DNA of 64,000 bases from an uncultured Chloroflexia bacterium (GTDB lineage Bacteria > Chloroflexota > Limnocylindria > Limnocylindrales > CSP1-4). A program made the translations under genes and the position numbers. Within the stretch, counting starts at the first letter, position 1. The number at the start of each line of letters is the position of its first letter. Below the pieces are notes generated by a model, which was given only the letters and a program-made list of their open reading frames with translations, was not told the DNA's origin and ran no database searches. The stretch lies in contig OY970218.1 in assembly GCA_963713975.1 (NCBI GenBank), positions 2,560,001-2,624,000 on the forward strand. The letters are read 5' to 3'. Of the stretch, positions 3 through 22,834 are shown in pieces.

Positions 3-185
3 TTCCTGGGCTCACGGACGTCCGGGACACTGTCCGATGTGGGCAACCGGATGCAGGCCGTCCCCGGGGTGGAGCTCAACGCGACCACGCCGCCGTCCGA
101 GTACGCCACCAAGAAGACATGCAAGGCTGCCGGGTACACTTGGGTCGCCAAGGTGAAGAAGGTGCCCGCGCACTGCTCCGACTGA
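3..185 (+). CDS. 3' end of a small protein, possibly Flp-type pilin with a Cys-containing extension (5' truncated)
   Basis: Frame from nt 3 reads FLGSRTSGTLSDVGNRMQAVPGVELNATTPPSEYATKKTCKAAGYTWVAKVKKVPAHCSD-stop (TGA 183-185). FLGxxxSGTLSxVG resembles Flp pilin C-termini, but the diagnostic N-terminus is outside the window. Confidence 0.35.
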   Translation, partial: FLGSRTSGTLSDVGNRMQAVPGVELNATTPPSEYATKKTCKAAGYTWVAKVKKVPAHCSD

Positions 186-17086: not shown

Positions 17087-17161
17087 TGGCTGGCGCGCCA
17101 GGATTCGAACCTGGAACCCCCTGATCCAGAGTCAGGTGCCATACCGTTAGGCCACGCGCCA
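17087..17161 (-). tRNA. tRNA-Gln, anticodon CTG
   Basis: Minus strand TGGCGCG...CCTGA-CTCTGGA-TCAGG...CCAGG-TTCGAAT-CCTGG-CGCGCCA-G-CCA; full cloverleaf with encoded CCA; TACCAT -10 upstream. Confidence 0.97.
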
Positions 17162-18535: not shown

Positions 18536-18964
18536 TCAGCGCGGCTGCGTGACCCGGAAGCCTTCGCGCTCGGCGGCCCGCGCGAGCCGTTCATCCAGCG
18601 TCACCAATGGCAACGTGCCCGGGTCGCCGTCCGCAGCGGCAATGGCAGCTGCGAGTTGTAGGGCATCGGCCGCCCGGAGCGGGTGAGTCCGGACGAGGCG
18701 TTCCGCGGTCCGGCGCACGCGGGTGGTGGGTTGGAGCTCCTCCCACGCCGAGCTGAGAGCCGCCAGCCGTTCCAGAGCGGTGCCGATGAGACGGGCGTCG
18801 CTGTTGCCCTGGCGCTCGCGGCGTGCCACGGCCGAGACGCACTCAACGACCGTGCTCCACCAGACCACCATCACGGGATCAAGCTCGTACTCCGCCGTGG
18901 TCGCCCGGGTACCGTCCTCGTCCACGAGCAAGGGGACGATGGCGGAGGTATCCCAGAACCTCAC
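18536..18964 (-). CDS. vapC: VapC PIN-domain toxin
   Basis: FWDTSAIVPL, VECVSA, LRAADALQLAAA, VTLDERLARAAEREGF; overlaps antitoxin stop. Confidence 0.92.
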   Translation of the reverse strand: MRFWDTSAIVPLLVDEDGTRATTAEYELDPVMVVWWSTVVECVSAVARRERQGNSDARLIGTALERLAALSSAWEELQPTTRVRRTAERLVRTHPLRAADALQLAAAIAAADGDPGTLPLVTLDERLARAAEREGFRVTQPR

Positions 18965-19257
18965 CAGCCCGACCTGCGCTCCTCGAGGACCGCGTCCACG
19001 AGGCTGGGGCCGTCACCGCGCAGCCGCGGCCCAGGTGTCCGGATCATCTCGACCGGGGGTTTCCCAGTCCCTCGGCGGATGATCCCGGCCCGCTCCAGGC
19101 GGAGCAGCCGATCCTCGACGTCGACGCGGTCCGCAACAGGCTCGATCACGGCGACGGGGACGCCACGATCGGTGACAACGACCGATTCGCCCGCCTTGAC
19201 ACGATCGAGGATCGCGGACAGGCCGTTCTTGACCTCGGTGATGGTGGCTGTGATCAT
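18961..19257 (-). CDS. Phd/YefM family antitoxin
   Basis: MITATITEVKNGLSAILDRVKAGESVVVTDRGVPVAVIEP. Confidence 0.9.
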   Translation of the reverse strand: MITATITEVKNGLSAILDRVKAGESVVVTDRGVPVAVIEPVADRVDVEDRLLRLERAGIIRRGTGKPPVEMIRTPGPRLRGDGPSLVDAVLEERRSGW

Positions 19258-19292
19258 CTGGCTAGAATGGCCAGATCGAATTGGCCTGTCAA
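19256..19292 (-). promoter_or_regulatory. Sigma70 promoter (leaderless) with overlapping palindromic operator for vapBC
   Basis: TTGACA (19292-19287)-17 nt-CATTCT (19269-19264)-6 nt-ATG; inverted repeat ATCTGGCTA-GAA-TGGCCAGAT 19256-19276. Confidence 0.8.
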
Positions 19293-19331
19293 GGCCAGTC
19301 CGGCGCCTGCCCGGGTCTGCCGGCCTCGTGC

Positions 19332-20483
19332 TCAGGCCGCCCCGGCGCCCGTCCGCGCGGGGACCGCGTGGATGCCCCGACGCGCTGCCCGGGCGGCGCC
19401 GTCCGCGAGCGCATCGACCAGTGCCGTGCCGAGCTGGCCCCACTCGGTGAGGAACGCGTCGTGCCCCTTGACCGAGTCGAGCTCCCGGTACGTGGCATCC
19501 ACGCCGGCCGCGGTGGCATCGGCGACCAGTGCCCGGACCTGGGTGGGGCCGTACAGGATGTCGCCTTCAATGCCCAGGCCGGTGAGTCCCATCTCGGTGG
19601 TCGCGAGTGCGCCGAACGCCTCGAGGATCCCGCCCCGGCCCCGGCCCACGTCGTGGCCGTCCATGACCCGGACGAGGACGCGGTAGGTCTCGGCGTCGAA
19701 CCGGTCCGTCAGCTTGGCGCCCTGGTGGTCGAGGTACGAGTTGACCGCGAAGCGCCCGTCCGCCTGGATGGAGCGGCCGAACCGGGCGTCGAAGTCGGCT
19801 TCGGAGCGGTAGGTGGTCATGGCCAGCTGGCGGGCGATCGCGAGACCCTCCTCGCCCAGCCGGTCCAGGATCTCCAGCTGGATGTGGTTCCAGGCGATGG
19901 CGAGGCCCCCGGTCGCCGCCGGCGCCGCGACCGGCATGACGTGGTCCACGCCGTCCGGTCGCTCAAGGGCGACCTCGAGCGAGATCATGCCGCCCAGGGA
20001 GCCGCCCGCGACCAGCGCGAACCGCCCGATGCCCAACCGGTCCGCGAGCGCCCACAGGATGCGAGCCTCGTCGCGAGCGGTGGGCTGGGGGAAGGCCGCC
20101 CCATACGGCTCGCCGGTATCCGGGTCCAGCGAGGTGGGTCCCGTGGATCCGTACCGGCCGCCGAGCAGGTTCGCGCACAGGACGCCAACGCGGTTGGTGT
20201 CGAGTGCCCGTCCGGGACCGATGACCGGCGCCCACCAATCGCCGGCCGCGTCGGCCGATCCGGTGAGCGCATGGACGACGAGTACCTGCGGCGCGTCCGG
20301 TCCGGGGCCGTCGTGCCGGTACGCGATGGTCACCGGGATGGTCGAGCCTTCTTCCAGGCTCACCGGCCCGAGGTCGGCGGCCTCGAGCCGCCCGGTCCCC
20401 AAGGGGAGGCGGGCGGCCTGGTTCACGGTTCCGGGCCCCGGGAGGGTTCCGTCTCCCGGGGCGTTCTCCTGGTCTGGCGCCAT
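19332..20483 (-). CDS. metX: Homoserine O-acetyltransferase
   Basis: VVHALTGS, WWAPVIGPG, NLLGGRYGSTGP, GGSLGGM, SYLDHQG, GHDAFL; start could alternatively be GTG at 20426. Confidence 0.9.
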   Translation of the reverse strand: MAPDQENAPGDGTLPGPGTVNQAARLPLGTGRLEAADLGPVSLEEGSTIPVTIAYRHDGPGPDAPQVLVVHALTGSADAAGDWWAPVIGPGRALDTNRVGVLCANLLGGRYGSTGPTSLDPDTGEPYGAAFPQPTARDEARILWALADRLGIGRFALVAGGSLGGMISLEVALERPDGVDHVMPVAAPAATGGLAIAWNHIQLEILDRLGEEGLAIARQLAMTTYRSEADFDARFGRSIQADGRFAVNSYLDHQGAKLTDRFDAETYRVLVRVMDGHDVGRGRGGILEAFGALATTEMGLTGLGIEGDILYGPTQVRALVADATAAGVDATYRELDSVKGHDAFLTEWGQLGTALVDALADGAARAARRGIHAVPARTGAGAA

Positions 20484-20491
20484 GGCGGGGC

Positions 20492-21898
<1,407 letters not shown>

Positions 21899-21920
21899 CT
21901 ACCCGTCGCTTGTGCCGGAG

Positions 21921-21954
21921 AACAACAAAGCCGCGAACCGTCCTGGTTCGCGGC
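21921..21954 (-). terminator. Intrinsic terminator in the metY leader (attenuator)
   Basis: Minus strand GCCGCGAACC-AGGAC-GGTTCGCGGC followed by TTTGTTGTT, about 100 nt before the metY ATG. Confidence 0.85.
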
Positions 21955-21998
21955 CCCGGGACCTCGGCTCCGAGATCCCCGCTGTCACTCGCTGAAGG

Positions 21999-22097
21999 TC
22001 AGCGCGCGGAGTCTCGGCGCCCGTCCTCCGAACGACGGGGCCGCCCACGCATGCACATCAGCCAGGAGACGGTGGTGTGGCTCATCAGGCTGCGCAT
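21999..22097 (-). CDS. Putative Met/Cys-sensing leader peptide of metY-metX
   Basis: MRSLMSHTTVSWLMCMRGRPRRSEDGRRDSAR-stop with an ATG-TGC-ATG core; alternative start at 22085; lies just upstream of the terminator. Confidence 0.7.
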   Translation of the reverse strand: MRSLMSHTTVSWLMCMRGRPRRSEDGRRDSAR

Positions 22098-22201
22098 GGT
22101 GGGGGAGCGGCCCGGCCTTCGTCAAGTCAAGCCGGGCGCCGCAACCGAAACACAACCTCACGGCGGGTCCGAACGCAGGAACGCGTCCGCGGCGTGACGA
22201 G

Positions 22202-22231
22202 AAGGGCCCGCCGTCGCCGGCGGGCCCTGTT
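22202..22231. terminator. Stem-loop downstream of secreted-protein paralogue 1
   Basis: AGGGCCCGCCG-TCGC-CGGCGGGCCCT; near-identical hairpin at ~22971-22998. Confidence 0.7.
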
Positions 22232-22249
22232 GAGCGAGGGAGGTGGAGG

Positions 22250-22834
22250 TCAGCCGCTGGTGCCGGCCGACGGGGCGGGTGTTGCGTTCGGGTTCGTGCC
22301 GTCGGGAGCCGTGCCGTCCCAGTCGCCGCCCGGGCCGCCGCGGAAGCCGCCGTGACCACGGCCGCCGCCCATGAGGCCGCGCCCGATGGCCTGGAGCTCG
22401 TCGGTCGTGATCTTGCCGTCGTCCATCACCCCGGTCATCGCGCGGAGCCGGCTGTCGGCGGGGAGCTGGTTGAACTCGTCCTGGGTGATCACGCCGTCGG
22501 CGAGGAAGCCCTGGAGCTGGGTGCGCTCGGCGTCGCGCGCCGCGCGCTGGGCTGTGCGCTCGGCGACGAGTGCGTCGACGATGGCGGTCTTCTGCGCCTC
22601 GGTGATGGTTCCCTTGGCGACGAGGTCGTCGAGGACCGTGGACAGCTGGGTGTCCTCGAAGTCGGGCTTGACGTTGGTCCCGGCAGCCGGGTCCGGGGTT
22701 GCCGACGGGGCGGCGGGATCTGCGACGGTGGTCGCCGCGGAACCGTCGCCCGACGTCGCCAGGACCGCGCCGGTCGCCCCGACGAGGAGCACGCCGGCGA
22801 GCGGGATGCCGATGACGTTTCTGGTGAGCTTCAC
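22250..22834 (-). CDS. Secreted hypothetical protein (paralogue 1)
   Basis: 194 aa; CCGGAGG RBS; signal peptide; LDDLVAKGTITEAQKTAI, FLADGVITQDEF, MDDGKITTDEL; Gly-rich tail. Confidence 0.85.
   Translation of the reverse strand: MKLTRNVIGIPLAGVLLVGATGAVLATSGDGSAATTVADPAAPSATPDPAAGTNVKPDFEDTQLSTVLDDLVAKGTITEAQKTAIVDALVAERTAQRAARDAERTQLQGFLADGVITQDEFNQLPADSRLRAMTGVMDDGKITTDELQAIGRGLMGGGRGHGGFRGGPGGDWDGTAPDGTNPNATPAPSAGTSG

Follow-up and report, generated by a model that had tools for sequence, protein, structure and literature searches.

Upstream of the genes metY and metX, on the minus strand of a 64,000-nucleotide stretch of DNA from an uncultured Chloroflexia bacterium (the whole of which is called the window below), lies a leader that we take, with a probability of roughly 0.8, to be a ribosome-mediated leader-peptide transcription attenuator, one that would couple metY-metX to the supply of charged Met- and Cys-tRNA. 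A Met/Cys leader-peptide attenuator had been put forward in an original prediction made from the letters of the stretch, and the idea is supported by a conserved start and promoter of the upstream open reading frame (uORF), frame-restoring indels, a covarying terminator, a conserved antiterminator and sensor codons that match the pathway of the downstream gene. Sequence comparison places it in a scaffold that recurs across its family within the Limnocylindria-type Chloroflexota.

Sensor codons and the genes they precede

The evidence that carries this reading comes from related copies of the leader. In the window the putative sensor codons are ATG-TGC-ATG (Met-Cys-Met; 22050..22058, minus strand), which are codons -5 to -3 when counted from the CGG that opens the 5' strand of the antiterminator, GCGGCCCCG (22036..22044, minus strand). 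In each copy the ORF running through the antiterminator strand was read, and a tblastn search, backed by Pfam and NCBIfam checks of representatives, served to identify the first downstream gene; the 92 copies comprised 50 before metY, 17 before dapB-like genes and 25 before other or unidentified genes. Met was present at -3 in 50/50 of the metY leaders and at -5 in 48/50, with Cys at -4 in 35/50. The dapB-like leaders carried Lys at both -5 and -3 in 17/17 cases and at -4 in 10/17, and had no Met or Cys there, while Lys was found at codons -5 to -3 in 0/75 of the copies that do not precede dapB. At least one Met or Cys occupied these codons in 23 of the 25 remaining leaders (e.g. ICC, CSC, VCM, MAM), the exceptions being loci L116 and L133. 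Examples of sensor-rich leaders are MRMAMGMQMMQM and MDMWMCLSMCMCRM.

The genome from which the window was taken holds a Lys-type copy of its own. The covariance model of the element gave one strong match there and three weak ones; two of the weak matches (L045 and L047) look like chance, and the third (L046, 1501-1654 on the plus strand, outside the window) is a real Lys-type copy with the uORF MSHHTLVTFDARKKPWRPSRKARAQGL and the sensor codons R-K-K. The gene downstream of it (1700-2452) is of the DapB family by TIGR00036, at 92 bits and so under the cut-off of 122, and the arrangement agrees with the 17 Lys-x-Lys leaders before dapB-like genes of relatives. A strict regular-expression scan of the whole genome found no copy beyond the one in the window.

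To find the codons exchanged in this way on a single scaffold argues strongly, on comparative grounds, for attenuation by the ribosome. It also bears on the suggestion that the leader is a ligand- or protein-binding RNA switch, whether an undescribed riboswitch that recognises S-adenosylmethionine (SAM), a sulfur metabolite or methionine, or a target site for an RNA-binding regulator. Sensing would then fall to the hairpins P1 to P3, and the uORF would be incidental. A switch of this type would suit an element that precedes a coherent sulfur regulon, but the same scaffold stands before dapB-like genes with three codons changed to Lys and little else altered, and swapping three codons in a single-stranded or lower-stem segment would not re-target a ligand pocket. 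With the further points on both sides that are given below, we allow this explanation a small chance of being correct.

The genes that follow the 25 other copies encode OsmC-like proteins (9), carbonic anhydrases (5), SBP_bac_3 proteins (4), PALP enzymes (3) and members of the sulfite/nitrite reductase family (2), with two unidentified. Among the PALP and reductase loci L113 and L133 are of the threonine synthase type, L136 is CBS/cysteine-synthase-like, and L104 and L098 belong to the sulfite/nitrite reductase family. The set of genes behind Met/Cys leaders is wider than methionine synthesis, and for the OsmC-like proteins and carbonic anhydrases a link to sulfur amino acids is not obvious. 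The Cys-richer sensors (CSC, ICC, CVCMC) tend to stand before genes on the cysteine side.

Layout and conservation of the leader

The first gene of the pair, metY (20492..21823, minus strand), encodes an O-acetylhomoserine sulfhydrylase of 443 amino acids (NCBIfam TIGR01326, 662 bits against a cut-off of 495). The second, metX (19332..20483, minus strand), is of the homoserine O-acetyltransferase family, matching the NCBIfam MetX models at an E-value of 1e-82 though under their curated cut-offs, and its ATG at 20483 lies 8 nucleotides (nt) past the metY stop. All parts of the leader were located within 300 nt upstream of metY on the minus strand. They include everything that the original prediction had placed there, namely ATG-TGC-ATG, the perfect complementarity of GCGGCCCCG and CGGGGCCGC, a terminator with its U-tract and hairpins in between, each at the coordinates it had given.

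The promoter proposed in that prediction consists of a -35 box TTGACG (22125-22120), an 18-nt spacer and a -10 box CACCAT (22101-22096), and spans 22096..22125 on the minus strand. A strict sigma-70 consensus scan of 21600-22500 called no promoter at the leader, and the assignment is made on the ground of conservation. Among the 83 leaders with enough upstream sequence, in which the chosen starts were ATG (56), GTG (26) and TTG (1), the pattern TTGnnn-16..19-nAnnnT ending 6-11 nt before the uORF start was present in 75/83, which bears the proposal out, compared with 0/83 when the anchor was shifted by 45 nt as a control. A distance this short implies that the uORFs are leaderless or nearly so, and in the window leader the gap is 10 nt. 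An in-frame start at a fixed distance from a promoter in so many leaders also speaks against the RNA switch.

The uORF itself (21999..22085, minus strand) has 28 codons followed by TGA and by translation would yield the peptide MSHTTVSWLMCMRGRPRRSEDGRRDSAR. Two versions had been envisaged, of 28 and of 32 codons. The ATG at 22085 is kept in 30/30 genus sequences (an alignment of the window leader with 29 relatives), whereas the start of the 32-codon version at 22097 overlaps the -10 box, and most of the 29 relatives lack this ATG; the longer version was therefore rejected and the real uORF taken to be 22085-21999. Compensating -1/+1 indels in 3/30 of the genus sequences return the frame to the same TGA, a further point against an RNA switch with an incidental uORF, and the 5' part of the ORF varies within the genus in the manner of coding sequence (TCC/AGC serine switches, TGC/TGT, CTG/TTG). 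These are signs of coding within the genus, and the leader ORF is predicted to be translated.

Downstream of the sensor codons the antiterminator 5' strand doubles as the 5' arm of hairpin P1 (22015..22043, minus strand), the core of the predicted anti-antiterminator, which would sequester it according to RNAalifold, pair counts and single-sequence folds. Hairpin P3 (GGGAUC...GGUCCC; 21958..21979, minus strand), supported by RNAalifold and pair counts, lies immediately 5' of the terminator. The antiterminator 3' strand, CGGGGCCGC (21950..21958, minus strand), overlaps the 5' arm of the intrinsic terminator GCCGCGAACC-AGGAC-GGTTCGCGGC-TTTGTTGTT (21921..21954, minus strand), so that pairing of 22044-22036 with 21958-21950 and formation of the terminator are mutually exclusive. 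The terminator has a 10-bp core stem (21954-21930; up to 14 pairs in the scan), a 5-nt loop and a T-tract at 21929-21921. It was the one site called by a terminator scan of 21600-22500, where shuffled sequences lead one to expect 0.3, and the leader as a whole folds better than shuffled sequence (z = -2.9).

Pairs were counted in the 92-copy alignment, which was made with the covariance model and is hence biased towards the helices of that model. In P1, P3 and the terminator taken together 94.7% of cells pair, compared with 37-55% when the partner is slid, and 15/28 pairs show compensatory change (8/13 in the terminator, 5/6 in P3 and 2/6 in the upper P1 helix). The 9-bp antiterminator helix, which is outside the model's own structure, pairs in 97.8% of cells against 43-66% with the partner slid by 1-3 columns, and at one of its pairs C-G is replaced by U-A (10 copies) or by U-G (7 copies), all in the Lys class. 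An alignment of metY leaders had been proposed as a check of the attenuator; the sensor codons proved to be conserved before metY, and over the 92 copies of all classes the terminator and hairpins covary. Covarying helices would equally be expected of a ligand- or protein-binding RNA, as would the near invariance of the nucleotides from the sensor codons through the terminator in the 30-leader genus alignment.

The stretch after the sensor codons also invites the explanation that the leader is a nascent-peptide arrest sensor, of which TnaC and SpeFL are known examples that respond to small molecules. A conserved R-W/G-R-P-R-R-x-E-D-G would then stall the ribosome on a small molecule, and the stalled ribosome would set the RNA fold. 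In both classes the sensor codons are indeed followed by Trp/Arg/Gly-Arg-Pro. Across 33 unique metY leaders R-P-R-R-x-E-D-G hardly varies, and most of the changes fall on third codon positions; in 29/33 of these the stop codon comes directly afterwards, at +9, and a ribosome standing there would lie over the 3' arm of P1 and release the antiterminator strand. In the Lys class, however, the peptide after Trp-Arg-Pro is a different one (C-R-E-A-R-A-L-G-L), while P1 and the antiterminator are kept by way of compensatory changes (CCCUGCC/GGCACGGG, CCCUUCC/GGAACGGG, and GCGGCCCUG with CAGGGCCGC), which places the constraint on the RNA. The codons UGG-CGG-CCC are, moreover, themselves the antiterminator strand, and the stop in the genus of the window is at +14. 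An arrest peptide is accordingly given a slimmer chance still than the RNA switch.

The absence of a SAM-I or T-box consensus from the leader, claimed in the original prediction, was confirmed by the Rfam scan that it had called for. At the gathering score no SAM, T-box or other family was matched in the window near the leader, and at E<=10 the region 21750-22350 gave only noise matches to microRNA, CRISPR and small nucleolar RNA models. SAM-I (RF00162), SAM-IV (RF00634) and the lysine riboswitch had no match in the whole genome, and the T-box (RF00230) had only two partial sub-threshold matches there, both away from the leader. That no Rfam model matches is a point against a riboswitch as well; with no entry in Rfam 15, the element represents an RNA family that has yet to be catalogued. 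The two partial T-box matches (G000:C1:60870-60964, minus strand, and 2798814-2798910, plus strand) scored 55.1 and 33.6 bits against a gathering score of 93, and both span model positions 7-103 of 219.

When 21600-22260 was used as a DNA query, the leader was matched from about 22157 through metY in 68/70 genomes of the genus. With a covariance model built from 20 diverse copies the element was found in 95/151 sampled genomes of the family, representing 36/49 genera, and in 43/151 genomes of a class-wide sample, distributed as 32/44 in its own family, 9/50 and 1/49 in two other families and 0/6 in a family of roughly 1-Mb genomes; the counts include one genome flagged as unpublished in each sample (G148 in the family sample, G302 in the class sample). 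An exact-pattern scan of named genome records returned at least 119 stretches. Among the 80 matches listed, 76 were labelled Chloroflexota, Chloroflexia, Anaerolineaceae or Ca. Limnocylindrales/Limnocylindria metagenome-assembled genomes (MAGs) and four bore other labels. The carriers of the element are all uncultured MAGs. Partial copies of the leader occur elsewhere in some genomes of the genus, before an SBP_bac_3 lipoprotein, OsmC-like proteins and beta-carbonic anhydrase. One genome (G057) has two full leader-plus-metY matches, on contigs C1 and C15, with 89% and 87% identity, which points to a duplication or else to contamination, given as 5% for this genome.

The proposed switch and its folding models

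In the attenuator that we favour, transcription would start a few bases before the 28-codon ORF, in which Met-Cys-Met stands 6-15 nt upstream of GCGGCCCCG. With an ample supply of Met and Cys the ribosome would pass through and depart, leaving GCGGCCCCG locked in P1; the folding models suggest that this hairpin is lengthened when the sensor codons pair with the sequence on the 3' side of P1. Hairpin P3 and the terminator would then form, and transcription would halt at about 21921. A shortage of Met-tRNA or Cys-tRNA would make the ribosome stall on the sensor codons and melt or block the lower part of the P1 hairpin. The freed GCGGCCCCG would pair with CGGGGCCGC, taking up half of the terminator 5' arm, and RNA polymerase would continue into metY-metX. 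The parts of the leader, their conservation and covariation and the agreement of sensor codons with pathway were observed directly; what we infer, from the sequence and from models of the following kind, is that the ORF is translated, that ribosomes stall on it and which structure each position of the ribosome favours.

The ribosome was represented as an unpaired mask on a transcript cut before the terminator 3' arm, which was folded at equilibrium. Masked folding covered 84/92 leaders, the other eight having no start codon within 9-20 codons by the rule used. The front edge was counted from the start of the A-site codon and set at either 7 nt, reportedly the position of the ribosomal helicase, or 11 nt. 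With the 7-nt edge the antiterminator had a probability above 0.5 in 41/84 leaders without a ribosome, in 57/84, 65/84 and 72/84 with a stall at codons -5, -4 and -3 respectively, and in 49/84 with the ribosome at the stop codon. The corresponding values for the 11-nt edge were 41/84, 68/84, 61/84, 0/84 and 52/84. The claim that stalling leaves the antiterminator free depends on the reach of the stalled ribosome: in these folds all three sensor positions favour the antiterminator with the shorter edge and the first two do so with the longer, with which a stall at the third codon blocks it. In example folds calculated with no ribosome, a long anti-antiterminator hairpin arises from base pairing between the sensor codons and the sequence 3' of P1, and masking these codons shifts the minimum-energy fold to the antiterminator.

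A number of results weigh against the attenuator as proposed. With the edge at 11 nt, the antiterminator is lost from 84/84 leaders when the ribosome stalls at the third codon. A ribosome at the stop codon still allows it in 49-52/84, and the replete state must therefore depend on fast release. For the window leader the folding predicts, at a point where the 3' arm of the terminator has yet to be transcribed, an antiterminator probability of 0.86 with no ribosome and of 0.98 under a stall, so that equilibrium folding does not discriminate between the two for this copy. The extended lower stem exceeds a probability of 0.5 in only 37/84 leaders (28/45 of the metY leaders) and reaches 0.66 in that of the window. 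The covariation of the antiterminator helix amounts to one pair and, as the change is confined to one class, probably to one evolutionary event. The N-terminal part of the peptide has no third-position excess across the family, with entropies of 1.18, 1.15 and 1.12 at codon positions 1, 2 and 3, and this lack of wobble excess would also suit a ligand- or protein-binding RNA. Lastly, the metY Shine-Dalgarno (SD) sequence is predicted to be paired whichever state is forced, its unpaired probability in 29 genus leaders being 0.06 with the antiterminator and 0.09 with the terminator.

Folds of the full-length leader preferred the terminator in every condition, with a probability of about 0.8, which is expected of a kinetic switch but proves nothing. 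The same dominance, together with an SD that is paired in both states, would fit a constitutive leader, in which the terminator and hairpins simply hold read-through at a constant low level or make the mRNA more stable, or in which control is translational only, through the SD helix, with no sensing of amino acids by the uORF. Such a leader leaves the strict association of sensor codons with pathway unexplained, as it does the conserved, mutually exclusive 9-bp pairing, and we regard it as the least probable of the explanations weighed here.

The predicted SD-sequestering helix is formed by GTTCTCCGG (21915..21923, minus strand), which is the exact reverse complement of the metY SD region CCGGAGAAC (21839-21831) and does not vary in the genus alignment; corresponding pairs are seen in other genera, e.g. 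GUUUCCUCC with GGAGGAAC. Sequestration of the SD in both states, as modelled, may represent a further layer of control beyond attenuation. A block, CGACGGGTAGCCGCCGAG (21891..21908, minus strand), conserved in the genus alignment after the terminator and complementary to the region of the antiterminator 5' strand, is found between terminator and gene in metY- and OsmC-type leaders and resembles the 5' flank of the terminator. The possibility that in read-through mRNA the antiterminator state frees the metY SD, by pairing of the terminator 3' arm with the post-terminator block, found no support in folding: the SD was paired in both states, and under the antiterminator it was more open in only 1/29 leaders and less open in 3.

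A more elaborate proposal combines three parts. One ancestral attenuator scaffold would have been duplicated and re-coded within one lineage (from Met-Cys-Met to Lys-x-Lys or Cys-rich) as a plug-in sensor for a ribosome-run sulfur and lysine regulon; the invariant Trp-Arg-Pro would act as a slow-translation or arrest motif that parks the ribosome at the edge of the antiterminator strand; and the SD-sequestering helix would gate translation of metY. As a whole this is rather unlikely.

Public RNA sequencing runs contain 12-21% of the words of the window, this being the part conserved in relatives, and contigs from four RNA libraries were placed on it at >=88% likeness, a procedure in which true ends and levels are beyond the reach of the contigs. 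The leader was covered in 3/4 runs (X15, X16 and X18) by one contig each, of 158, 232 and 125 nt, nearly all within 21883-22106. Two of these contigs, each from a separate study, end at 21915, a short way beyond the T-tract. Contigs covered metY in 4/4 runs and none joins the leader to metY, although the uncovered 21833-21870 is variable among relatives, which makes the gap there uninformative. These contigs give a weak hint of short leader transcripts in relatives.

Elsewhere in the window there is a thiamine pyrophosphate (TPP) riboswitch (RF00059; 28904-29014, plus strand; 59.5 bits against a gathering score of 54.3) and a tRNA gene (17090-17161, minus strand; 66 bits with the Rfam tRNA model). 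Downstream of metX the ORF 18964-19443 (minus strand) matches the model for Phd-family antitoxins (TIGR01552, 36.4 bits against a cut-off of 20.8), and the ORF 18539-18964 beside it had no NCBIfam match; the pair may be a toxin-antitoxin system.

Relation to known regulators

In textbook accounts methionine genes are controlled by SAM riboswitches, T-boxes or repressors, and in Gram-positive lineages the usual RNA controls of metY and metX are SAM riboswitches (SAM-I, RF00162; SAM-IV, RF00634) and Met T-boxes (RF00230). The leader described here occupies the same position and would likewise choose between terminator and antiterminator before methionine genes. Those systems sense SAM or uncharged tRNA directly, without translation, whereas the methionine genes here are apparently governed by the translation of Met and Cys codons. 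To our knowledge nothing has been established about gene regulation in the abundant uncultured Limnocylindria-type Chloroflexota. The Lys codons on the same scaffold before dapB can be viewed as a natural experiment on a change of attenuator specificity and the scaffold as a compact, portable design for amino-acid sensors. The element would also mark genes tied to the supply of sulfur amino acids, among them those for OsmC-like proteins, beta-carbonic anhydrase, an SBP_bac_3 transporter and threonine synthase.

The classical leader-peptide attenuators are those of the enterobacterial trp, his, leu, thr and ilv operons (Rfam Trp_leader, His_leader, Leu_leader and Thr_leader). The present element resembles them in its short leader ORF rich in codons for the end product, in the intrinsic terminator before the first structural gene, in the mutually exclusive antiterminator and in the resulting chain of anti-antiterminator, antiterminator and terminator. 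It differs in that the sensor is Met/Cys (Lys in the sister class) and of three codons only, the ORF is leaderless or nearly so and the host belongs to the Chloroflexota. The antiterminator strand, moreover, is the 5' arm and not the 3' arm of the first hairpin, starting 6 nt past the last sensor codon, and one homologous scaffold serves several pathways.

Closer in some respects are two actinobacterial systems. In mycobacteria, polycysteine leaderless small ORFs (sORFs), termed the 'Cys ribulon', have been shown experimentally to sense Cys and to act on translation, ribosome stalling on the Cys codons remodelling mRNA structure (Canestrari et al., bioRxiv 10.1101/834739). As that preprint presents them, they share with the Chloroflexota element leaderless sensory sORFs before sulfur and cysteine genes and one sensing principle at several loci; the element differs from them in the dominance of Met codons and in an RNA scaffold conserved as a family, and the SD-sequestering helix predicted here too is unresponsive in the folding model. 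In Streptomyces lividans a leaderless Met/Cys-rich peptide, metL (...CMCRRMCAF), was predicted from RNA-seq before metNIQ, was proposed to be methionine-dependent and has, by its authors' account, no typical Rho-independent terminator (Droste et al. 2021, PMC8079986). Its Met and Cys codons followed by Arg codons recall the M-C-M-R-x-R found here, a likeness by description with no sequence relationship implied, but metL as reported comes from one actinomycete and stands before a transporter rather than metY-metX.

A literature search that did not extend to supplements returned no description of the element in Chloroflexi or Limnocylindria, nor of a Lys-codon leader before lysine genes. The original prediction had held that such an attenuator was not known for this operon, which stands insofar as no description for metY-metX was found, and is qualified by the precedents of metL in Streptomyces and the Cys sORFs of mycobacteria as their reports describe them. 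The mechanism, ribosome-mediated attenuation, is a known one; what sets this case apart is the sensor set, the scaffold, the host and the re-coded sister class.

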